A DNA stretch of 64,000 bases from Pseudomonadota bacterium. Lineage in GTDB: Bacteria; Pseudomonadota; Alphaproteobacteria; Micavibrionales; UBA2020. A program made the translations under genes and the position numbers. Within the stretch, counting starts at the first letter, position 1. The number at the start of each line of letters is the position of its first letter. The stretch lies in assembly GCA_021849295.1 (NCBI GenBank), contig JAJZTA010000014.1, positions 13,551 through 77,550 on the forward strand. Reading direction: 5' to 3'. The notes under the pieces are model-generated. The model saw only the letters and a program-made list of their open reading frames with translations. It had not been told where the DNA came from and did not search any database. Below are positions 9,418-27,659 of this stretch, one piece after another.

Positions 9418-9425
9418 CATGCACA

Positions 9426-9456
9426 CAGGGCAGACCGCATAATACGGCCTGCCCTG
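9426..9456. terminator. Hairpin between convergent genes, possible terminator
   Basis: CAGGGCAGACCG ... CGGCCTGCCCTG inverted repeat; no clear U tract. Confidence 0.5.
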
Positions 9457-9475
9457 CAGCATTATATATAGGCTA

Positions 9476-9820
9476 TTATTCGCCTTTTTTAACTTCTTTG
9501 AAGAAGGTTCTGACGGTCGCGTTTCTCTGGCATATCTTTTCGATATCCGCATCCGTCATCATCGCACCGATCGGAATGAAGATAACCTTCGCATCGGCGC
9601 TTTGCATGGTCTCTTCAAGCTCCAGCAAAGTGCTGACAACGGAAACCTTGTCGTCACGCCTGATCGTCGTGCTTTCCCACCCCTGCTCGACTGGAAACAA
9701 CCGGCTGCCATGCGGCAGGAACTTGCATCCCCGCTCCATGGCATTCTGCTGCGCGGCAACAGACGCGGTTTTCTCCAGAAGATCGGCGGGGGGGGAGGTT
9801 TTACGTCCCTCACCCGTCAT
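9476..9820 (-). CDS. Hypothetical protein, third gene of the VWA-AAA operon
   Basis: Strong SD AGGAGG before ATG; starts 16 nt after the ATPase stop. Confidence 0.75.
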   Translation of the reverse strand: MTGEGRKTSPPADLLEKTASVAAQQNAMERGCKFLPHGSRLFPVEQGWESTTIRRDDKVSVVSTLLELEETMQSADAKVIFIPIGAMMTDADIEKICQRNATVRTFFKEVKKGE

Positions 9821-9836
9821 GTGATCCTCCTAAGCC

Positions 9837-12719
9837 TTAGATAGACGGCTTCTTTCTGTCTTTGACGACATACTTTTCGTACAGCATGCCCATTTTGTCA
9901 TCGACAAGCATCTCGGACAGCTTCGTCTTGTCGGCGAGTTGCGCAGCCGTGAGGACGCCCTGCTTGATCAGGACTTCATCCAGCTTTGCTTCCGGCTCGT
10001 TGCTGTTTTTCAGCTCTTCGCGCGCGGCTTTGAGTTCCGCCGGCGTGATGGCTTTCTTCGCAACAAGGAACTCGCCCAGATCGAAGTCGTTCCTGAACCT
10101 GAAGGCATCCGCAAGGTGACGCTTCGTCAGCTCGGGATTGCGCGTTCCGCGCGTCAGGTCGGTCAGAGCCGCGTCGACTTTGGCCTTCGCGTTCGGCGCA
10201 TGGCGGTCGACGTGGATGATACCGGCTTCCTTGAAGGCCGACAGCAGTTTGGTCGGAACCTTCTCGCCGACAACCAGAGCCTTTTTGCGGTTCTTGTTCA
10301 GGACGATGTGGACGGAGACATCACTCTCCTTGCCCGCAGCGTCTTTGAACATCACCCGCAGCGTGGTCGTGGCAAGACCTTGCTCGGAACGGTTTTCCGT
10401 GATCTTGAAGATTTCGTCCGCGCTGGACTTTTTCTCCGGCTCCGTGTCCTGCGGATTCTGTTCTTTCTCAATCTGCTCGGACAAAGTGCGGATATTCGTA
10501 TCCCAGATCGCGTCGAGGTTCTTCGCGCTCACCGTCGGCAGGGCCAGTGCCGCCATGAAGTCTTCATGGCTGACAATGTCGCTGACGGAAAGTTCGACCT
10601 CTTCCGTGCCTTCCGGATAAGCGGCCATATCTTCGATCTTGGCGCGCGCAAGCGGGAAAGCGCCAAGCGACTCATGGTCGCGGTTGACGATGAAGAGATC
10701 CTTGGTTTCCGCGGTGTTGTCGTCGCCGACGGTTTGCAGAGCCCGCTTCAGACGCGCGATCGTGATGATCTTGTCGTCATCGGCTTCGACGATCTGCGGA
10801 TCAACCTGACGGATGTAATCGCAGAACACTTTGCGTGCTGCGGCGGCTCTCTTGCCCACATCGGTGCTGTCGAAGACGCTGACGTTCAGGTCTTCTTCGA
10901 CCGAACGCTGGAAGCTGTGCGCCCCGTCCTGCAGGACGATGTCGCGCAAGCCGGCGTTGTCCATGGAGGCTTTCAGCTTCTCGTAGAGCTTGTGCTTGCC
11001 GATCGCTTCGGACTTCTCGAACACCATGCGGTCCAGCACGTCGACAAGGCGCGTACCGAAAGCCACGGACGGGTTTTCGTACTCCTTCTCTCCCAGCTTG
11101 GGCTGTTCCATGAAGTTTTTGAAATCGGCCTTGGTTTCCGCGTCTTCCGGCAGCATGCGGGGACGGATCGGAAGAGCCGCCTCGAGGTGCTGCTTGATTT
11201 TGCGGAAGTCGATGCCTTCCTTCTTGGAGTATTCTTCGTCCACTTCCTCGATCAGATCGGTGTTTCCGGTCGTCATGAGGTTTTCGGCATTGGTCATTTC
11301 GGACCATTCGCTGTAGAAGCGCGCCAGTTTGCGGGAAGAGTTAACGACGTTCCTCCAGTTCTCGAGCAGCGTTTCCTGCAGCTCGGGCACAGGCACGCCT
11401 TCGAGTTCGGCCTTGGTCTTTCTCAGTTGCATCAGCCACTGGCCGAATTCCTTCGGATTTTCGTCCGCCTGCTCTCTGAAGACGTTGTACAGCGTCGACA
11501 CAGGCACGCCGCACATCATCTGGCAGATACGGTGCTGCCAGTCGGCTTCCGTCGGGTCAGGCAGGGTTTGCGGCGACAGACGCGAGTAGACCGATTTGTT
11601 CAGGCTGCGCGTGGTCAGGCCATCTTCCGTCTTGTTACCCGTCAGGGTGACGAAGAAGCCCGCCTGCATGTCGTCACGGCGGAAGGTAAAGGACGACGGA
11701 CCGTTGGTCAGGTCTTTATTCTTCAGCGGGTTTTCGACCGTGCATTCGTTGGTTTCGCCGTTGAGGAATTGCCATACGGTTTGCAGACCGTTGTCCGACC
11801 CTTCCTTGGACTTGTTGTACTCGTCCAGAACGCCCTCGCGGCCTTCGATGAACCAGCGGATCAGCGGGCCGTATTGCGAGTTCATGCCCAGCATGTTGCC
11901 GCTGGCGTTGTCGAGGCCTTCGATCTGCGCGACATCCTTGAGGATGGAGAACGCGGCTTCAACGTCTTGGGGCTTGGCGTTGCCCTTGAAGTAGTTCCAG
12001 TCAATGGACTTGATGTTCTTGTCGTCGTCAAGCGTGACAGCGCCCGCCGGCAGCTGCTTCAGCTTCGCCAGAGACAGCGCTTCGAGAGAGCCGGCCTGCA
12101 GACGCTTGTCGACGGCCTTGGGCAGAGCGTCGCCCGCGCCGAAGTCGAGAACCATTTCGAACAGAAGCTCGTTCATGTTCTTGCCGCCGCAGTCGAACAC
12201 TTCGACGGGCTTCGTCGAACGCATACGCCCCTGCAGGGCGCCCATGAAGGATTTACCGGCACCCGGATCACCGATCATCATCTGCGTGCGGTTGGTGCTT
12301 TCCGGCTTGCGGCGCTCGAGACCGTCAAAGAACAGCGGCAGCATGCTCGGCACCGGCATGTCGCAATAGGCCATGGCGATGACTTCGCTGTACGGACGCT
12401 CGGAGTAGACCTTCATCGGGTTGCTGTCGTCCGCAATACGGGACAAAACCTGCTCCAGATTCGACTGACCTTTGTAGTCAACGCGCTGTGAACCCCACAT
12501 CGGGTACGGACGCGTCGTCGTGCCCAGCGGCCTGACCAGCTTTTCGGACAGTTCCTGCGCGCGTTCCATGCGGCGCTCCGTCTCTTTTCTGACGGCGGCT
12601 TCCGAGGCCTTCTCGCCCAGAAGTCTGCGGGCTTCCTTATGCTGGAAACCCTCATCAACGATCAAGTCCTTGATTTTTGTTTTAAGGAGCTGTGTGTCTT
12701 GTTCCATTTTTTTCGTCAT
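9837..12719 (-). CDS. Large MoxR/CbbQ/CobS-like AAA+ ATPase with C-terminal MshEN-like motifs
   Basis: Walker A GDPGAGKS, Walker B GVLDEYNK, sensor-1 LTGN, Arg finger YSRL; ATGA overlap with the upstream VWA gene. Confidence 0.8.
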   Translation of the reverse strand: MTKKMEQDTQLLKTKIKDLIVDEGFQHKEARRLLGEKASEAAVRKETERRMERAQELSEKLVRPLGTTTRPYPMWGSQRVDYKGQSNLEQVLSRIADDSNPMKVYSERPYSEVIAMAYCDMPVPSMLPLFFDGLERRKPESTNRTQMMIGDPGAGKSFMGALQGRMRSTKPVEVFDCGGKNMNELLFEMVLDFGAGDALPKAVDKRLQAGSLEALSLAKLKQLPAGAVTLDDDKNIKSIDWNYFKGNAKPQDVEAAFSILKDVAQIEGLDNASGNMLGMNSQYGPLIRWFIEGREGVLDEYNKSKEGSDNGLQTVWQFLNGETNECTVENPLKNKDLTNGPSSFTFRRDDMQAGFFVTLTGNKTEDGLTTRSLNKSVYSRLSPQTLPDPTEADWQHRICQMMCGVPVSTLYNVFREQADENPKEFGQWLMQLRKTKAELEGVPVPELQETLLENWRNVVNSSRKLARFYSEWSEMTNAENLMTTGNTDLIEEVDEEYSKKEGIDFRKIKQHLEAALPIRPRMLPEDAETKADFKNFMEQPKLGEKEYENPSVAFGTRLVDVLDRMVFEKSEAIGKHKLYEKLKASMDNAGLRDIVLQDGAHSFQRSVEEDLNVSVFDSTDVGKRAAAARKVFCDYIRQVDPQIVEADDDKIITIARLKRALQTVGDDNTAETKDLFIVNRDHESLGAFPLARAKIEDMAAYPEGTEEVELSVSDIVSHEDFMAALALPTVSAKNLDAIWDTNIRTLSEQIEKEQNPQDTEPEKKSSADEIFKITENRSEQGLATTTLRVMFKDAAGKESDVSVHIVLNKNRKKALVVGEKVPTKLLSAFKEAGIIHVDRHAPNAKAKVDAALTDLTRGTRNPELTKRHLADAFRFRNDFDLGEFLVAKKAITPAELKAAREELKNSNEPEAKLDEVLIKQGVLTAAQLADKTKLSEMLVDDKMGMLYEKYVVKDRKKPSI

Positions 12720-15715
12720 TTCTTTGGATCCATCTTGTTAAGGGCTTTTTTCATGTCTCGCCGTTTCTTGCTGCTCGGGATGGCTTTGAAGCTGCCACAT
12801 TTCCGAACCTTCTCGAGTAGTAGTCCCACAATCGCCATCGGCACCTCGTTGGGGTCTTTCCCCAGGACAACGCCGACCTGCTGGTGCGGTTTCTTTGCCC
12901 CGAGTCCTTTGGCCATTTTCTCCATGGAAGTGCCTTTCTGCGCCGTGATGATCGCGACGTCGAACGTCACCTTGTCCGAGTATCTGAACATGGTGGCGAT
13001 TTTGTCTTTGGACGGCAGTTCGTCAACCGCGTCCCCGTCGGAAATCACCAACACGTGCGTGAAACCGGAGAGGTTTCCACTTTTGCCCCTGTGTTCGCTG
13101 ATCGTCTCCGCGACCTTTGGAACGGCAGGTGCAAATTCCGTCCCGGAATTGAGGCCTTTGCGCATGGTTTCCATGGCCTGGCCGACCTTGACGCGGTCGT
13201 CTCCGGGTTTAATCAAAATAGGCGGTTTGTCGTTACCCCACATGCCGACATAGACATTCATGTGCATGTCCTTGCCCGCGGCCGCCTCATAAAGGATGGC
13301 GGCGGCCTGCAGCGCGCTTTGCAGCGGGGTGACGCCCTTCAGCGCGCCGGACGCCATGTCCATACTGCCGGAACCGTCGATCATGATGACGATATCGACT
13401 TCGGCAGGCGTGAGCTTGTTCTCGTCCCTGTGGAAGCGCTTCAGATCGTCTTCTTCGACGGATCCCATGGCCTTCTTGATCGTGAGATCCTTGTGCGCCT
13501 CGACATTGAAGCGGTCTTTCACTTCGCCGTCCTGCGGCAGGATTTCCAGCGACTTCGACTTGGTGATCGTCGTCTGCATCTGCATTTCCTGAATCTTCTT
13601 GAAGATCAGACGGACGCGGTTGATGTGGCTGGCCAGTTCCTTGATGCGCTCCGGATAGTTTGTCCAGTCCTGCTTGGCAAGATCGGCCAGGCTCTTGCCC
13701 TCGCCTTTTCCGGCGCCCTTGCTCGGCTTGCCGTTCTTGGTGCGCTTGTTGCTCTTCTTTTTCTTGCCTTTACCCTGACCTTGACCGTCGGCGTCTTCAC
13801 CGTCGGCGTCGTCGCCGTCGGCGTCTTCGCCGTCTTCGCCGTCTTCACCGTCCTGATCATCCTTGGCGCGGTCTTCGAGCTCGTCCATGTCCATGGCGTC
13901 GCCGTCGCCGTCGTCATTGGCGTCTTCAAGGTCATCAAGGCCTTCGCCATCCTTGCCTTCGCCGTCTGTATCCTGACCGTTGGCATCCGGATCGACTTCG
14001 TCTTCCGGATTTTCCGTCGGATTTTCAACGTTGGGCATATCGCCGGCGCCTTCGACGGGAACGGAGTCATCCTTTTCGGTGCCCAGCTTGCCTTCGGGGC
14101 TGTCGCCCTTCTGGTCGCTCTTTTCTCCGTCGGCGTCCTCGCTCTCGTCGCCTTCGCCGTCCTTATCCAGATCGTCCGGATCCTGCGGCTCGCCTTGCTG
14201 TTTGCCGTGTTCTTTGCTCTTTTTGCCTTTACCCTTGCCTTTGCCCTTGCCTTTACCCTGGCCCTGACCTTGACCTTGCCCCTGTCCGTCCTGTTCCTCC
14301 CCGTCTTGTTCCTCGCCGTCCTGCTCGTCGCCTTCTTCGCCGTCCTGACCTTGCTGCTGTTGCTTGTCTTTCGCATCCTTCAGCTGCTGGTCGACCTGAT
14401 CGTTGACCTGCTCCAGAATATTCTTGATCAGGTCTTCGGCATAAAGATCCCAGATAGTGTCGATGACTTCCTTGCGGCGCTCGTCCATGCTCTTAATACG
14501 GCCCATCATGTTGCTCCAGCCATACAGACGCTCGTGCGCCTTGGGCTGCAGGTTTTCGAGGCCGTCGGGGCCGCCGCAGAGTTCGCGCAGATGTTTGAAG
14601 TCCGCATGATCCACGCCGTCCGTATCTTCCTTCGCATTGGCCGGGCGACCAGCCAGCGTCGCGGTCTTGCGCACCATGTTCGGATCGACGCCGACGCGCT
14701 TCCAGCCCTTGTCCGTATCCTCGAACAAGCCGTTGTTCTGGAAGAAGCCCAGTTGCACCGCATTGCAAAGGTTCATGTAGCGGCGCAGCTCCTCCGAAGC
14801 ATTTTTGTCCGGCGGCAGACGGGTCAGACCCGTCGCGCGCTGCGTAACGGCGGTGTTGTTGATCGACACACTATAGTCTTGCAGTTCCTGCAGGCCGATG
14901 TTGGAAACAAACCTGTTGGCGACGTTCTCCTCCGCCGCATCGAACATCATGCTGCGCAGCTGCCATTCGGCGCTCAAAAGGCGCAGCTTCTTGTATTCGT
15001 CCGGCTTGAGCTCGGGGCCTTTTTTCGCCGCGGCCTTGCGCGACTTTTGCAGCAGCGGCTGCATCTGGTTGTATACTTTCTGCATCCGGCGCGGATAGCT
15101 CACCGTCAGCAGGGCGCGGCCGATTTCACGGTAGACGTCGGCACGGGCATGCTCGAAGCCTACGATCATCGTCTGCATCAGGTCAATATCAATGATGTTC
15201 TTCTGGCGGCGAAAGGCAAACCCGCTGCCCGGCTCGCCCCAGGCATATTTGGTATTCTTGTCGCGCAAGGCTTCGCGGACGTGCTGTGCGTGGAGCAGCA
15301 GTTCCTGATAAGCCGTCCTTGTGCCTGTAATCTGTTTCCAGAGACCGGTGCCGCCCAGCTCCCCCGTTTCCACGGCGGGATCCCATGTCTTTAGGGTATC
15401 GGGGTTCAGCTTAAGGAAAGCCATCCCCGCCCCCCAGAGCAACTGGGTTTCCGGCGTATTGAAGCGCGGCGGCTCTTGCGTCTTGCCCGTCTGGATGGCG
15501 TCTATGACGTTTTTGATTTCATCCTTGAACTCGGGATCTTTTGTCGGAATGCTATCGGCAAATTCCTTTAAATCGTCAAGCGTAAACGGCGTCGGATCTT
15601 CGGGCGCCTGCGCTGCGCGTATCTTGCTGTTCAGGAGAAACCTGTGACGCGTCAGCGGTTCACGCAGAATACTGTCAATATTTCTTCTATCTTCCATTCC
15701 AGCCATACGCGTCAT
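12716..15715 (-). CDS. VWA (MIDAS) protein with acidic low-complexity linker and degenerate N-terminal metallopeptidase-like domain
   Basis: IVIMIDGSGSM (DxSxS), SGTEF, VLVISDG; long D/E/G/Q-rich tract; REIGR ... FDAAEENVAN. Confidence 0.85.
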   Translation of the reverse strand: MTRMAGMEDRRNIDSILREPLTRHRFLLNSKIRAAQAPEDPTPFTLDDLKEFADSIPTKDPEFKDEIKNVIDAIQTGKTQEPPRFNTPETQLLWGAGMAFLKLNPDTLKTWDPAVETGELGGTGLWKQITGTRTAYQELLLHAQHVREALRDKNTKYAWGEPGSGFAFRRQKNIIDIDLMQTMIVGFEHARADVYREIGRALLTVSYPRRMQKVYNQMQPLLQKSRKAAAKKGPELKPDEYKKLRLLSAEWQLRSMMFDAAEENVANRFVSNIGLQELQDYSVSINNTAVTQRATGLTRLPPDKNASEELRRYMNLCNAVQLGFFQNNGLFEDTDKGWKRVGVDPNMVRKTATLAGRPANAKEDTDGVDHADFKHLRELCGGPDGLENLQPKAHERLYGWSNMMGRIKSMDERRKEVIDTIWDLYAEDLIKNILEQVNDQVDQQLKDAKDKQQQQGQDGEEGDEQDGEEQDGEEQDGQGQGQGQGQGKGKGKGKGKGKKSKEHGKQQGEPQDPDDLDKDGEGDESEDADGEKSDQKGDSPEGKLGTEKDDSVPVEGAGDMPNVENPTENPEDEVDPDANGQDTDGEGKDGEGLDDLEDANDDGDGDAMDMDELEDRAKDDQDGEDGEDGEDADGDDADGEDADGQGQGKGKKKKSNKRTKNGKPSKGAGKGEGKSLADLAKQDWTNYPERIKELASHINRVRLIFKKIQEMQMQTTITKSKSLEILPQDGEVKDRFNVEAHKDLTIKKAMGSVEEDDLKRFHRDENKLTPAEVDIVIMIDGSGSMDMASGALKGVTPLQSALQAAAILYEAAAGKDMHMNVYVGMWGNDKPPILIKPGDDRVKVGQAMETMRKGLNSGTEFAPAVPKVAETISEHRGKSGNLSGFTHVLVISDGDAVDELPSKDKIATMFRYSDKVTFDVAIITAQKGTSMEKMAKGLGAKKPHQQVGVVLGKDPNEVPMAIVGLLLEKVRKCGSFKAIPSSKKRRDMKKALNKMDPKK
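13690..14375 (-). repeat. Coding low-complexity repeats (EQDGE, GQ/GK runs, DGEDAD) in the VWA protein linker
   Basis: Direct translation, e.g. GQGQGQGQGKGKGKGKGKGKK and DGEDGEDGEDADGDDADGEDADG. Confidence 0.9.
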
Positions 15716-15950
15716 CTCGTTTTGAAGGTTAAAGCGTAGTCAATAAAAACAGTGATTTCGAAAACGGGGCCTTACGGCCGGAAAATACGTCGGGAATCGA
15801 AGCTGTTTTTATTCGACAAACATCCTATCATTTTGACGCAATAGGTAAATGGTGAATAATTAATATAAGATAAATATTTTTTTTATATGCTTATTATCCA
15901 TGTCATGGATATTTTTATAGTTTAATTTCAAGCTTATTTTTTTTATGTAA

Positions 15951-16922
15951 TTATAATCCAATTATCATAAAGAGAGAAATCATCACGGATATGTATAATA
16001 AAAAGATATATTGGACACGCGTTGCGCTCAATAAATCCTCCGGCATCAGGCGTGCCGTGCCGTCTTTCGGGCCAAGCCAGGGATTTTTTTCGACATAATT
16101 TTCATTGTATCGTACCGCCCCGCCGAGCGCGACGCCAAGGCCGTTCGCCATGGCCGCCATCAACCAATCGCGGTAAACAAAACCAGCCGCGCGGCTCTGC
16201 TGCAGGATCGATACGAACTCGTTCCATGGATTGACCCGCCGCACGAAGAGGCCGCTTGCCGCGATAAGGACAACGCTCAGCGCCGCCGGAACGATATTCA
16301 TCAATATGTCCGCGCCGCGCACGAACTGGCCGAAGTATTTCCGGCGTTTGTCGGGCAAGCCGAACGCGTGCTGCAAAGCCGAATACGTCACGTAGAGGGC
16401 CATGCCGATGGGCCCCGCCGCCAGAAACCAGAATACCGGCCCCAGCAGAAACCTGTTGAATGAAAACGCGATGAATTCGATCGTTCTGCGGATGACAGTG
16501 TGACCGTCAGCATTTTCCAGTGGCTCGTGCAGATAAGGCTGCAGCGAGGCCTTGGCCGTTGGCAAATCCCCTATGTTCTTCAGCACCTCGCGCGCGACCT
16601 TTATCGGCGTCATGAAATTGACGCAGCAGGCCAAAAACAAAAGCTGGGCAACAAAGCCGTATACGCTGCGTCCCAGATAATGCACGGCCAGCCCGATGAT
16701 GACGGCGGCAAGGCCCATCACCACTCCGACCATCGCGCCGCGCACGATGCGCACCGATTGCGGGCGCCCCGGCCGGTTCAGCCGGCGGTCAAGGTCGATC
16801 CCCGCGTCTTCCACCCAGCGGTAAAAAAGCGGCTTGTAACCTGCTTTATACGGTAATGAATATCCGACGCCAAACTGCAGGATAAGAAAAATAAAAACGA
16901 GCAGAGACGTCAGTTGCGCCAT
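15951..16922 (-). CDS. CobD/CbiB-AmpE family membrane protein
   Basis: LDRRLNR, RGAMV, IRRTIE, GPVFWF, FGQF ... DILMNIVPA, AAMANGLGVALGG. Confidence 0.75.
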   Translation of the reverse strand: MAQLTSLLVFIFLILQFGVGYSLPYKAGYKPLFYRWVEDAGIDLDRRLNRPGRPQSVRIVRGAMVGVVMGLAAVIIGLAVHYLGRSVYGFVAQLLFLACCVNFMTPIKVAREVLKNIGDLPTAKASLQPYLHEPLENADGHTVIRRTIEFIAFSFNRFLLGPVFWFLAAGPIGMALYVTYSALQHAFGLPDKRRKYFGQFVRGADILMNIVPAALSVVLIAASGLFVRRVNPWNEFVSILQQSRAAGFVYRDWLMAAMANGLGVALGGAVRYNENYVEKNPWLGPKDGTARLMPEDLLSATRVQYIFLLYISVMISLFMIIGL

Positions 16923-23729: not shown

Positions 23730-24172
<443 letters not shown>

Positions 24173-24173
<1 letters not shown>

Positions 24174-24925
24174 CAGCGTTTCCCTTGCTGCTCGAGGTGG
24201 CGGCTCAAAATAGAGCCGAATTCGGCGGAGAAGGCCTCCAGCCTGTCGCCGTAACGGCCAAGATCGGTGGAAAACTTGTTGTAGGCCACGACAGCCGGAA
24301 TGGCGGCGACGAGGCCGAGCGCGGTCGCGAACAGCGCCTCGGCGATGCCGGGCGCGACGACGGCAAGGCTGGTGTTGCGCTCGCCCGCGATGGCGGAAAA
24401 GCTGTTCATGATGCCCCACACCGTGCCAAACAGGCCGATGAACGGCGCGGTCGAGCCGACGGTGCCGAGGAAGGTCATGTATTTTTCCAGCAGGTTGACC
24501 TCGCGGCTGATCGTGGTCGCCATCGCACGGTCGATGCGCTGCTGCAGGCCGGCGCGCAGGTCGCCCGCGGCAAGGTTCGGGCCGCCGCTTTCCACCGTCA
24601 GGTTCCACTCGTTCATGCCCGCGCAGAAGGTGCGCGCCATCGGGTCGCCCGGCTTGGCCTGAATGCGCTTGTAGAGTTTCTCCAGCGCCTCGCCCGACCA
24701 GAAGGAGTTCTCGAACTTGTTGGCCTTGGAATTCAGGCTCTTGAACGTCGCCCATTTGTCGAAGATGATCGCCCAGCTCCAGATCGACGCCGAAACGAGG
24801 ATCAGCAGAATGCACTTCACGATCAGGTCGGCCTGCAAAAACAGCCCCCAGACCGAAAGGTCATGCGCCGCGTGCGACCCCGCAAGCACCACGGAACTCG
24901 TGCCCGCAACCGGTAATGCCACCAT
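24173..24925 (-). CDS. tolQ: Protein TolQ
   Basis: [51 protein letters not shown]. Confidence 0.97.
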
Positions 24926-25357: not shown

Positions 25358-26414
25358 CCGCTGGCAGGTCGATCATCAGCGCCATCTGGCGGTCTTTGGC
25401 GTTGGCGGGCGGCGGCAGGCCGAGGTATTTGTAGCCGTTGTCGGAAATCATGCGCCCGCGCGGCGTGCGGATGATCAGCCCGCACTGGATCAGGTACGGC
25501 TCGACCGTTTCCTCCAGCACGTCGCGCTGTTCGGAAAGCGCGGCGGAAATCGTCTCGATGCCCGCGGGCCCGCCCGCGTAATTGTCCGCGATGCACTGCA
25601 TGTAGCGGCGGTCCATGGAATCCAGCCCCTGCTTGTCGACTTCGAGCTTAAGAAGCGCGGCGTCGGCGATTTTGGCGTCGACCTTCTTCACTTTATCGAC
25701 AGCGGCGAAATCCCGCACGCGCCTTGTCAGCCTGCCCGCGATGCGCGGCGTGCCGCGGGAACGGCGCGCGATCTCGAACGCGCCCTCCGGCGTGATGTCC
25801 ATGCCGATGATGTTGGATCCGCGCAGGACGATCTCCGCCAGTTCGTCGGCGGCATAAAATTCCAGCCGCAGCGGAATGCCGAAGCGCTCGCGCAACGGGC
25901 GCGTGATCAGGCCGGAGCGCGTCGTCGCGCCGACCAGCGTGAAGGGCGGCAGGTCGATGCGCACCGAGCGCGCCGCGGGCCCCTCGCCGATGATGAGGTC
26001 AAGCTGGCGGTCTTCCATGGCGGGATAGAGAATTTCCTCGACCGCCGTATTGAGACGGTGGATTTCGTCGATGAACAAAACGTCGTGCGGCTGCAGGTTG
26101 GTGAGAATGGCGGCGAGATCGCCCGCCTTGGAAATCACCGGCCCCGAGGTGGCGCGAAAGCCGACTTTCATCTCGCGGCTGATGATCTGCGCCAGCGTCG
26201 TTTTGCCCAGCCCCGGCGGGCCGAAGAGCAGGACGTGGTCGAGCGGCTCGTTGCGCGCGCGCGCCGCCTCTATAAACACCTTGAGATTTTCGCGCGATTT
26301 TTTCTGGCCGATGAACTCGTCGATCGACAGCGGACGGATGGACAACTCGTCGCTATCCTTTTCCGGCTGGTAGGCGGGCGCGATTTCGCGCTGGGCTTGC
26401 ACCTCGGAGGTCAT
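25344..26414 (-). CDS. ruvB: Holliday junction branch migration helicase RuvB
   Basis: [36 protein letters not shown]. Confidence 0.98.
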
Positions 26415-27058
26415 GCGCTCAACTCCTTCAGGCTTTCACGGATCAGATCGCCGAGCGGGAGATTGTCGCCCTTCTCACGCAGCACGTCGGCGACGGCGCT
26501 GAAGGCCTCGCTGCGGCCATAGCCGAGATTGATCAGCGCGGAAACGGCGTCGTTGCTGGCGGTAATCGGCAGTTCGGCGACGGGCGCGGAGCCCTTGCCT
26601 TTTTTGCCGGTGGCGGATTGCGCCTGCTCTGTCGCCGCCTGTCCGAGCGCCATCTTGCCCGCCTTCTCTTTCAGTTCGGTAATGATGCGCACGGCAAGTT
26701 TCTCGCCAACGCCGTCCGCCATCTTGATCGCCGCCTTGTCCTGCGAGGCGATCACCACCGGCAAACGGTCGGCAGGCACGGCGGCCAGAATGGCCTGCGC
26801 CACTTTCGCGCCGACGCCCTGCACGGTGCACAGGATCAGGAACCATTCCTTTTCCGCCGCGTCGGCAAAGCCGTAGAGCGTGATCTGGTCCTCGCGCACG
26901 ATGGTCTCGATCAGCAAACTGACGGGCGTGCCTTTCTTGGAGCCGATCTTGGCCAGCGTGCGGCTCGACGCATAAACCAGATAGCCGACGCCGTTCACGT
27001 CGATAATGACGTAGTTCGTGCCGACGCTGTCGATCAAACCGGAAAGTTTCGCGATCAC
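26411..27058 (-). CDS. ruvA: Holliday junction branch migration protein RuvA
   Basis: GTG start 27058; [48 protein letters not shown]. Confidence 0.96.
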
Positions 27059-27561
27059 CTGACGCCCCCGCTCATGATCCCGCCCATCTTCACGCGGCTG
27101 GACGAGTGGTTGGCGTGGCAGATGGCGACGGCGAGCGCGTCCGCCGCGTCGGGCGATGCCTCGACGCCAGGGAGCAGCGTGCGGATCATCATCTGCACCT
27201 GTTCCTTTTCCGCGTGACCCGCGCCGACGACGGATTTCTTCACCAGATTGGCGGGATATTCCGACACCGGAATGCCGAACTTCGCGGGCGCGAGCAGCGC
27301 GATGCCGCGCGCCAGACCCAACTTCAACGAAGATGCGGGATTTTTGTTCACGAACACTTCCTCGACCGCTGCTTCTTCCGGCAGCCAGATTTTCATTTGC
27401 TGCATCAGGCCGTCGAAGATCTCCGCCAGACGGCGCGCCGACGGCGATTTCGCCCCAGTCGCCACCACGCCATGCGAGATATGCGAGATTCTGTTGCCCT
27501 GCACGTCGATCAGCCCCCAGCCCGTGCGCTGCAGTCCCGGATCGATACCAATAATTCTCAT
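27055..27561 (-). CDS. ruvC: Crossover junction endodeoxyribonuclease RuvC
   Basis: MRIIGIDPG, AVEEVF, LKLGLARG, VKKSVVG, DAADALAVAICH. Confidence 0.97.
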   Translation of the reverse strand: MRIIGIDPGLQRTGWGLIDVQGNRISHISHGVVATGAKSPSARRLAEIFDGLMQQMKIWLPEEAAVEEVFVNKNPASSLKLGLARGIALLAPAKFGIPVSEYPANLVKKSVVGAGHAEKEQVQMMIRTLLPGVEASPDAADALAVAICHANHSSSRVKMGGIMSGGVR

Positions 27562-27659
27562 AATCCACACCCCAAGATGAACGAGCGACGCATTTGAGTA
27601 TAAACCGTGAACAGACGGGAATGCACGCGAATATTTATAGCTCGCCCGCATCTCTCCAC

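Follow-up and report, generated by a model that had tools for sequence, protein, structure and literature searches.

Molecular motors in which a MoxR-class AAA+ ATPase works together with a partner protein carrying a VWA domain are widespread, and their mechanism is understood for a few clients, namely nitric oxide reductase (NOR), Rubisco, and the chelatases. NorQ-NorD, which serves the maturation of cNOR, and CbbQ-CbbO, the Rubisco activase, both combine an AAA+ protein of the MoxR 'CGN' group with such a partner. The two genes of each pair are adjacent, and the partner combines N-domain, linker, and finger with a VWA domain bearing a MIDAS (metal-ion-dependent adhesion site). In the CobS-CobT pair, which drives the aerobic cobaltochelatase and has CobN as its client, CobT shows this same succession of N-domain, acidic linker, finger, and VWA. 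For NorQD, a finger-in-pore mechanism has been described, together with docking of the N-domain on the lid (PMC13036017). A finger-in-pore mechanism is also described in a report on CobST, which places the CobT finger at residues 362-403, before the MIDAS residue D410 (bioRxiv 10.64898/2026.10.09.757910). Another point of comparison is midasin (Rea1, MDN1), where six AAA modules share one chain with a tether rich in aspartate and glutamate (D/E) and an extended MIDAS domain, to which the substrate attaches through a ubiquitin-like domain. The subject of the present analysis is an operon of three minus-strand genes that constitutes a new, highly derived family within this known MoxR/VWA class. 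It lies in a window (the whole stretch of DNA that was analysed) of 64,000 nt from Pseudomonadota bacterium GCA_021849295.1 (lineage UBA2020), a Micavibrio-like member of the uncultured Alphaproteobacteria, corresponding to positions 13,551-77,550 of the forward strand of contig JAJZTA010000014.1.

The operon encodes a VWA/MIDAS partner protein of 999 aa (gene 1, P0001, 12716-15715), an AAA+ ATPase of 960 aa (gene 2, P0002, 9837-12719), and a conserved small subunit of 114 aa (gene 3, P0003, 9476-9820), all positions being those of the window and all features lying on the minus strand unless stated otherwise. Since its parts match those described for NorQD and CobST, the trio is probably a soluble, lineage-specific MoxR-class AAA+/VWA 'finger-in-pore' remodelling motor, similar to CobS-CobT and NorQ-NorD and about three times larger. 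No published description of the operon family was found in a search outside which supplements and most subscription journals remained.

An enlarged AAA+ ATPase and its VWA partner

The structure model of the gene 2 protein (predicted local distance difference test, pLDDT, 83; predicted template modelling score, pTM, 0.75) contains an AAA+ module with its lid at residues 120-590 (10950-12362), as delimited by structure matches and invariant motifs. There is a single pair of Walker motifs and a single AAA module in the 960 residues, with the Walker A motif GDPGAGKS at residues 150-157 (12249-12272) and the Walker B motif VLDE at residues 297-300 (11820-11831). D151, P152, G153, G155, K156, S157, D299, and E300 are invariant in the 28 sequences of the family alignment, as are T360 and N362 of the TLTGN stretch at 358-362 and R380 in an SRL context; TLTGN would correspond to sensor 1 and R380 to the arginine finger. 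An earlier note on this DNA had described one AAA+ module with a very long insert between the Walker motifs, which is borne out, the motifs being 143 residues apart because of a large, mainly helical insert at residues 177-292 (11844-12191; read from the secondary structure of the model, with pLDDT partly low). This insert may correspond to the helix-2 (H2) insert of the clade to which the MoxR class belongs (Pfam AAA_5/AAA_3), and the hairpin at 325-347 would fit a pre-sensor-1 insert. With Foldseek, the protein matches HslU best, and HslU likewise carries an insert at the first of these positions.

Whole-model structure searches were dominated by the AAA+ module for gene 2 and by the VWA domain for gene 1. 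In a structure search other than Foldseek, the gene 2 model was matched best by NorQ (9qh4_A, Z 14.6, 248 of 254 residues, model residues 120 to 590), by AAA modules of dynein (Z 14.6 and 14.1), and by CbbQ2 (Z 14.4). These score about 3 Z units above classical AAA proteins, which come after Rea1 (11.8), HslU (11.7), and McrB (11.4). NorQ-NorD and CbbQ-CbbO are the closest solved relatives of both large proteins. Compared with the roughly 270 aa of NorQ and CbbQ, the 960-aa protein is extended by an N-domain and by a C-terminal region of about 370 aa; its lid is expanded, and an insert of about 115 aa lies between Walker A and Walker B. The N-terminal 119 residues are confidently modelled. The C-terminal region, which the same note had put at some 550 largely unassignable residues, is shorter than that, because the AAA+ module, lid included, extends to about residue 590. 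It spans residues 591-960 (9840-10949), has a confident alpha/beta model, and matched neither a known family nor a PDB sequence.

Gene 1 is organized in four parts, and its model has an overall pLDDT of 76. The last of them is an extended VWA/MIDAS domain with a basic C-terminal tail (residues 676-999, 12719-13690, with DxSxS at 13364-13378). VWA_2 matches residues 775-894 (E 1.3e-5) and is present in 32 of 32 members of the gene 1 family. The MIDAS is complete: among 32 sequences, no variation is seen at D780, S782, S784, and D893, and T859 is nearly invariant. When the VWA model was compared with solved structures, the best match was the MIDAS domain of Rea1 (6qta_A, Z 21.0, root-mean-square deviation, rmsd, 2.7, 216 of 258 residues aligned, model residues 682 to 975), followed by the MIDAS domain of human MDN1 (8ql1, Z 18.1) and the VWA domain of NorD (9qh8_G, Z 17.9, rmsd 7.6), all other VWA domains remaining at Z 15.5 or below. 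The top Foldseek match of the whole gene 1 model is NorD in the NorQD complex. A PDB search with the profile of the gene 1 family returned nothing significant.

Directly before the MIDAS strand, residues 713-770 (13406-13579) form a putative finger, in the model a pair of long strands whose tip is helical; K747 and D757 of this finger are invariant in the 32-sequence alignment. By position, it would be the equivalent of the CobT finger. It is preceded by an acidic, glycine-rich linker of 219 aa (residues 457-675, 13691-14347), presumably disordered (pLDDT mostly below 50), with 35% D+E, 21% G, and a net charge of -47. Across the family, linkers of this kind measure 194-318 aa, with a D+E fraction of 0.20-0.36. 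An acidic tether followed by a complete MIDAS had been proposed from the outset, and both stand. Within the linker, the model and the alignment reveal a conserved island at residues 540-566 (KLG...VPVEG.GDMP, 14018-14098), predicted to be a beta-hairpin with strands at 546-554 and 558-563 (pLDDT 68-89) and conserved in the sequences of type 1, the operon type of the window. This island may be a docking element.

The first part of gene 1 is the N-domain, residues 1-456 (14348-15715), modelled with a pLDDT of about 90. It is helical, as had been noted, and in addition holds a small sheet and a degenerate zincin motif. Strands at 156-178 are followed by a helix at 187-203, and the motif occupies residues 184-200 (IVGFEHARADVYREIGR, 15116-15166, placed by alignment columns). 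Many relatives carry a second, paralogous operon (type 2), 26-30% identical. Whereas the paralogues read HEIGH, residues 195-199 of the window protein read REIGR and do not form an HExxH motif. The pattern R-E-x-G-x is found in 28 of 28 type-1 loci with a match to the search expression, and HE[IE]GH in 10 of 10 type-2 loci with coverage, as well as in 5 of the 32 aligned members of the gene 1 family. About 63 residues downstream of the HExxH position lies a conserved helix, AEENVxNRF. The degenerate motif, this helix, and the succession of sheet and helix in the model together suggest that the N-domain is a zincin-like domain, inactive in the window protein; as arginine replaces the first histidine in all 28 type-1 loci, binding of zinc by this protein is very unlikely. 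The N-domain matched no family in Pfam and NCBIfam scans, either in the window protein or across family members. Atlas proposed CobT (0.90) and DUF2201_N (0.85), both to be taken as leads only, and an hhalign comparison of the N-domain with a 5-sequence DUF2201_N alignment aligned nothing (probability 8.7%).

How these proteins relate to the described pairs can now be stated. What sets gene 1 apart from NorD and CbbO is an N-domain of 456 aa, in which the zincin motif is dead, and an acidic linker of 219 aa; gene 2 has no sequence-level similarity to NorQ or CbbQ, and a conserved third subunit of 114 aa is a further difference. Neither a NOR nor a Rubisco client is present; nor genes such as norCB, to which NorQ-NorD is linked, were absent from the 18 neighbouring proteins scanned, the rest of the genome not having been searched for them. 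With CobT, gene 1 shares the order of its parts, and phage CobT-like models are its best full-length structural matches: in a library of viral structures, phage CobT-like proteins came top with about 900 aligned columns (E 7e-11), so that the overall design of gene 1 is that of CobT enlarged. On the other hand, PF06213 does not match gene 1, and in an hhalign comparison with the genome's own CobT no more than the pre-VWA and VWA regions aligned (probability 48%). That CobT has 617 aa (PF06213, E 7e-74), within which N-domain, acidic linker, and VWA follow each other in the same order as in gene 1, and is encoded with a canonical CobS-like protein (328-aa open reading frame) outside the window (G000 C27:92268-95400, G000 being the source genome). 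Because canonical CobS and CobT occur separately in this genome, the trio was rejected both as CobST and as its replacement; in addition, gene 1 lacks PF06213, and no CobN was found in the genome at 88% completeness. The description of the pair as a MoxR-like AAA+ protein with a VWA partner, orthologous to none of CobST, NorQD, or RavA-ViaA, therefore agrees with the absence of a family match and with the presence of these separate genes.

The earlier note had also seen in the operon a split, midasin-like chaperone. At the level of domains this is broadly justified: a D/E-rich tether leads to an extended MIDAS domain, for which Rea1 provides the best match among solved structures, and the AAA module of gene 2 falls in the same broad clade. 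As a whole, however, the design is that of the CobT/NorD partners enlarged. Moreover, ATPase and MIDAS reside here on separate proteins, each ATPase chain has one AAA module instead of six, and the distribution is narrow and bacterial.

Gene layout, conservation, and neighbourhood

The three minus-strand genes are real and, judging from their layout, co-transcribed. The stop codon of gene 1 and the start codon of gene 2 share the sequence ATGA (12716-12719), and gene 3 has an AGGAGG ribosome-binding site (9826-9831) 5 nt before its ATG. The minus-strand frames are taken as the genes in view of their codon-position GC content (0.60-0.63, 0.37, and 0.73-0.77 at the three positions in genes 1 and 2) and of the hundreds of homologues of their products, with identities down to 27-30%. 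Long plus-strand reading frames of 850 and 836 aa are shadows, the codon-position signal and the homologues belonging to the minus strand. Hydrophobicity exceeds 1.45 in none of the 19-residue windows and so gives no sign of a membrane helix. Upstream of gene 1 lies an AT-rich spacer of 235 bp (15716-15950; 30.2% GC against 58.6% for the window), where the promoter presumably resides, although a simple promoter scan found no sigma-70-like minus-strand promoter inside it. On the downstream side, the interval that separates gene 3 from a convergent gene of the inositol monophosphatase (IMPase) family contains a hairpin at 9419-9462 (assigned to neither strand), with a predicted energy of -33.4 kcal/mol, a z-score of -5.56, and none of 200 shuffles equally good; it was not listed by a simple terminator scan, as it lacks a T run. 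A translationally coupled three-gene operon between an AT-rich upstream region and a downstream hairpin, as initially proposed, is what these features describe. Its GC content resembles that of the genome, which comprises 2.2 Mb in 34 contigs and is 88% complete.

The family has a narrow distribution. The homologues, without exception from metagenome-assembled genomes, bear the labels Micavibrio sp., Alphaproteobacteria bacterium, Rhodospirillales bacterium, or Rickettsiales bacterium. Within a sample of the order, the ATPase was found in 26 of 41 genomes including that of the source; leaving the latter out, it is present in 20 of 24, 3 of 3, and 2 of 2 genomes of three families (f1, f4, and f8) and in none of the 11 genomes of five other families. 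Across the class, it was found in 7 of 301 sampled genomes, again including the source genome; an unpublished genome (G080) is among these seven.

Synteny was counted over 39 loci from species genomes. The typical order is DksA, CobD-like protein (not always present), VWA protein, ATPase, small protein, a protein of about 500 aa, and a convergent IMPase. The VWA gene lies upstream of the ATPase gene in 36 loci and the small gene downstream of it in 34; a fourth gene occurs in 32, DksA in 26, the CobD-like gene in 20, and IMPase in 23. Seven of the eight missing VWA or small genes fall at contig ends (the three VWA ones at contig starts), and the eighth concerns locus L063, which has no match for the small gene though its contig continues. 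The trio is also kept in the type-2 operon, so that the neighbourhood survey suggested earlier did reveal a conserved trio in both paralogous operons. Accordingly, gene 3 is not the orphan it had been taken for. Homologues number 70 database proteins, the gene is present in 25 of the 41 genomes, and it adjoins the ATPase gene at both paralogous loci. Its invariant residues include H37, W48, E69, R99, and E109, and no known family was matched. Co-folding of the VWA part (residues 675-999), the C-terminal part of the ATPase (595-960), and the gene 3 protein scored 0.00 in a run without controls, a value uninformative on binding.

What varies is the gene that follows the trio. In relatives, the fourth gene encodes a translationally coupled, internally repetitive protein of about 490-530 aa (for instance L022:7080-8558, L025:6492-8018, and L020:11623-13116). 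It has no Pfam family, and its profile found nothing significant in the PDB; the best matches were ankyrin proteins (E 0.07-1.2), so its likeness to ankyrins is only a lead. Its repeat module recurs in many weaker copies across other genomes of the family. No fourth gene turned up in the source genome or in its closest relatives (G004; G006, 98% complete; G008, 96% complete), and loci L026, L027, and L029 lack it as well. Of 12 type-2 loci (L019, L023, L065-L074), 11 show the order VWA2, AAA2, small2, ABC exporter; this exporter is MsbA-like, although below all cut-offs. No type-2 operon was found in the source genome. The statement that no client is encoded nearby thus applies to the sublineage of the window, whereas relatives carry the ankyrin-like fourth gene and the paralogous operon an exporter.

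A further variation concerns the ATPase itself. Residues 883-935 (9915-10073) form an insertion with an MshEN-like tandem motif, matching NF053729 (MshEN, which binds cyclic di-GMP) with an E-value of 1.1e-7 and 31.6 bits, below the cut-off of 38. In what we take to be the two MshEN half-motifs, the leading arginine is replaced, by D and K, respectively. The insertion is specific to a sublineage, being present in only 2 of the 28 aligned sequences (P0002 and P0006), both from the sublineage in which the fourth gene was not found.

The surroundings of the operon in the window are of a housekeeping nature and include genes for DksA, a CobD/CbiB-family protein, valyl-tRNA synthetase, TolB, ExbD/TolR, and RuvAB. 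The CobD/CbiB-family gene, directly upstream of the operon (15951-16922), encodes a membrane protein that matches PF03186 with 98.6 bits and falls far below the NCBIfam cut-offs for CbiB; it is fast-diverging, and its synteny extends to the 20 loci counted above. It was dropped as a fixed partner, since it is absent from several loci, such as L038-L041, where DksA stands directly before the VWA gene. In a longest-frame reading, two other neighbours would have long N-terminal extensions: an ExbD/TolR-family protein of 361 aa (23730-24815) has its domain at residues 232-355, and a RuvA of 385 aa (26411-27568) has its RuvA_N domain from residue 172 onwards.

A probable remodelling motor and alternative readings

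Starting from the observed genes, motifs, folds, synteny, and co-occurrence, the following working cycle can be envisaged for a MoxR/VWA remodelling motor. The gene 2 ATPase would assemble as a hexameric ring, with the gene 1 N-domain, zincin-like and devoid of its metal-binding histidines, anchoring or binding a client at the periphery. The finger before the VWA domain would enter the central pore and touch the enlarged helix-2 insert, while the MIDAS would grip an acidic residue of the client. ATP hydrolysis could then turn or pull the VWA domain against the acidic tether of about 220 aa, and the client would be remodelled. The 114-aa protein may act as a third subunit or as an adaptor. In relatives, the fourth genes are the best candidates for the client, namely the ankyrin-like protein in type 1 and the ABC exporter in type 2, where the HExxH motif is intact.

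Several observations weigh against this reading. The class assignment of gene 2 rests on its predicted fold and motifs, as there is no sequence-level link to any AAA family: Pfam gave no curated AAA family for P0002 at E <=1, none of the 28 family members matches a Pfam AAA model at E <=0.1, and the family profile finds nothing in the PDB. Among 1.84 billion representative proteins, this profile retrieves only 294, mostly over their full length. The structure matches of gene 2 are moderate, and Z-scores of 14-15 can reportedly be reached by chance for some helical models. The equivalences of the insert with H2 and of residues 713-770 with the finger were read from secondary structure only. Some 370 residues of gene 2 and the whole gene 3 protein have no assigned fold, and there is no client gene in the window.

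A more elaborate scenario, and a rather unlikely one in our view, is that the trio is a split, tethered 'mini-midasin' descended from a zincin protease controlled by an AAA+ ATPase. The type-2 protease would still be live and associated with the ABC exporter, whereas the dead type-1 protease would now serve as a clamp for the client, ring, tether, and MIDAS having become a pure force generator that acts on ankyrin-like proteins or, in the sublineage of the window, on a new client. As the family occurs chiefly in Micavibrio-like predators or symbionts with small genomes, such a machine may help to handle proteins that take part in the interaction with prey or host cells.

It is unlikely, too, that the operon encodes a motor for the insertion of a metal or cofactor in the sense of CobST, NorQD, or CoxDE, serving a metalloenzyme or the CobD/CbiB-like neighbour. 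Action on the active sites of enzymes is common to NorQD and CbbQO, the closest relatives of solved structure, and to the CobT-like design, and the CobD/CbiB-family gene lies directly upstream in the window and is found in 20 of 39 loci. However, that gene is missing from several loci, diverges fast, and is separated from the operon by the 235-bp AT-rich spacer; nor is the operon linked to any gene for a metalloenzyme. The genome already possesses a canonical CobS and CobT, and no gene of the CobN/BchH type was found in it at its 88% completeness.

A distinctly unlikely alternative for the window protein is an ATP-regulated protease or processing machine, in which the MIDAS would capture a substrate, the AAA+ ring unfold or present it, and the zincin-like domain cleave it. 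The HE[IE]GH motif kept by type-2 partners, the conserved AEENVxNRF helix, and the sheet followed by a motif-bearing helix in the model argue for it, but the REIGR sequence of the window protein and the arginine common to the type-1 loci argue against. Pfam and NCBIfam assigned no peptidase family even to the type-2 paralogues with an intact HExxH, and the comparison with DUF2201_N was null. A proteolytic role, as far as the motifs indicate, is plausible for the paralogue and not for the window protein.

The earlier note had also raised the possibility of a conflict system, which would be either anti-phage or abortive, of the vWA-MoxR ternary kind, or a weapon of predation. This reading fares poorly and is very improbable. 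As outlined by Kaur et al. (2020, PMC7159879), the ternary systems likewise comprise three components, with a MoxR-like ATPase and a vWA protein accompanied by VMAP or iSTAND. The Micavibrio labels in the lineage point in the same direction, Micavibrio being an epibiotic predator (PMC3189940), as does the expansion of the ankyrin-like module in relatives. Such systems are, however, marked by effector domains that follow the vWA domain and by a mobile, changing context. Here the VWA domain ends the protein, with no effector domain after it, and no variable effectors distinguish relatives from each other. The third component, at 114 aa, is neither VMAP nor iSTAND by size or description, and the described ternary systems use MoxR proteins of standard size (PMC7159879). 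The housekeeping context is fixed, 26 of the 39 loci having DksA upstream and 23 having IMPase downstream, and the GC content resembles that of the genome. Finally, the single PADLOC match, PD-T4-6 for gene 2 (E 0.0045, 13.8 bits), is not significant, and genes 1 and 3 had none.

The least credible explanation is a bacterial functional counterpart of midasin that strips factors off large ribonucleoprotein assemblies, whether ribosomal or other: despite the Rea1 MIDAS as best match (Z 21.0), the D/E-rich tether before the MIDAS, and the appearance of Rea1 (Z 11.8) and Mdn1 (Z 11.1) rings when the ATPase was compared, each chain has a single AAA module and not six, NorQ, CbbQ, and dynein outscore Rea1 for the ATPase, no ligand of the ubiquitin-like (UBL) type was identified, and a core role in ribosome assembly fits ill with a system found in only 7 of 301 alphaproteobacterial genomes.

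As a probable MoxR/VWA remodelling motor, the operon defines four protein families for which databases have no model, namely the ATPase, the N-domain of its partner, the small subunit, and the repeat protein of relatives. It also adds a bacterial example of a design combining a D/E-rich tether with a Rea1-like MIDAS. The family represents an extreme and easily recognised version of the MoxR/VWA motors, in which every part is enlarged. Its members provide natural comparisons on how such motors choose their clients and act on them, through paralogues with a live or a dead HExxH motif, and through operons in which the fourth gene encodes an ankyrin-like protein or an ABC exporter, or is lacking altogether.

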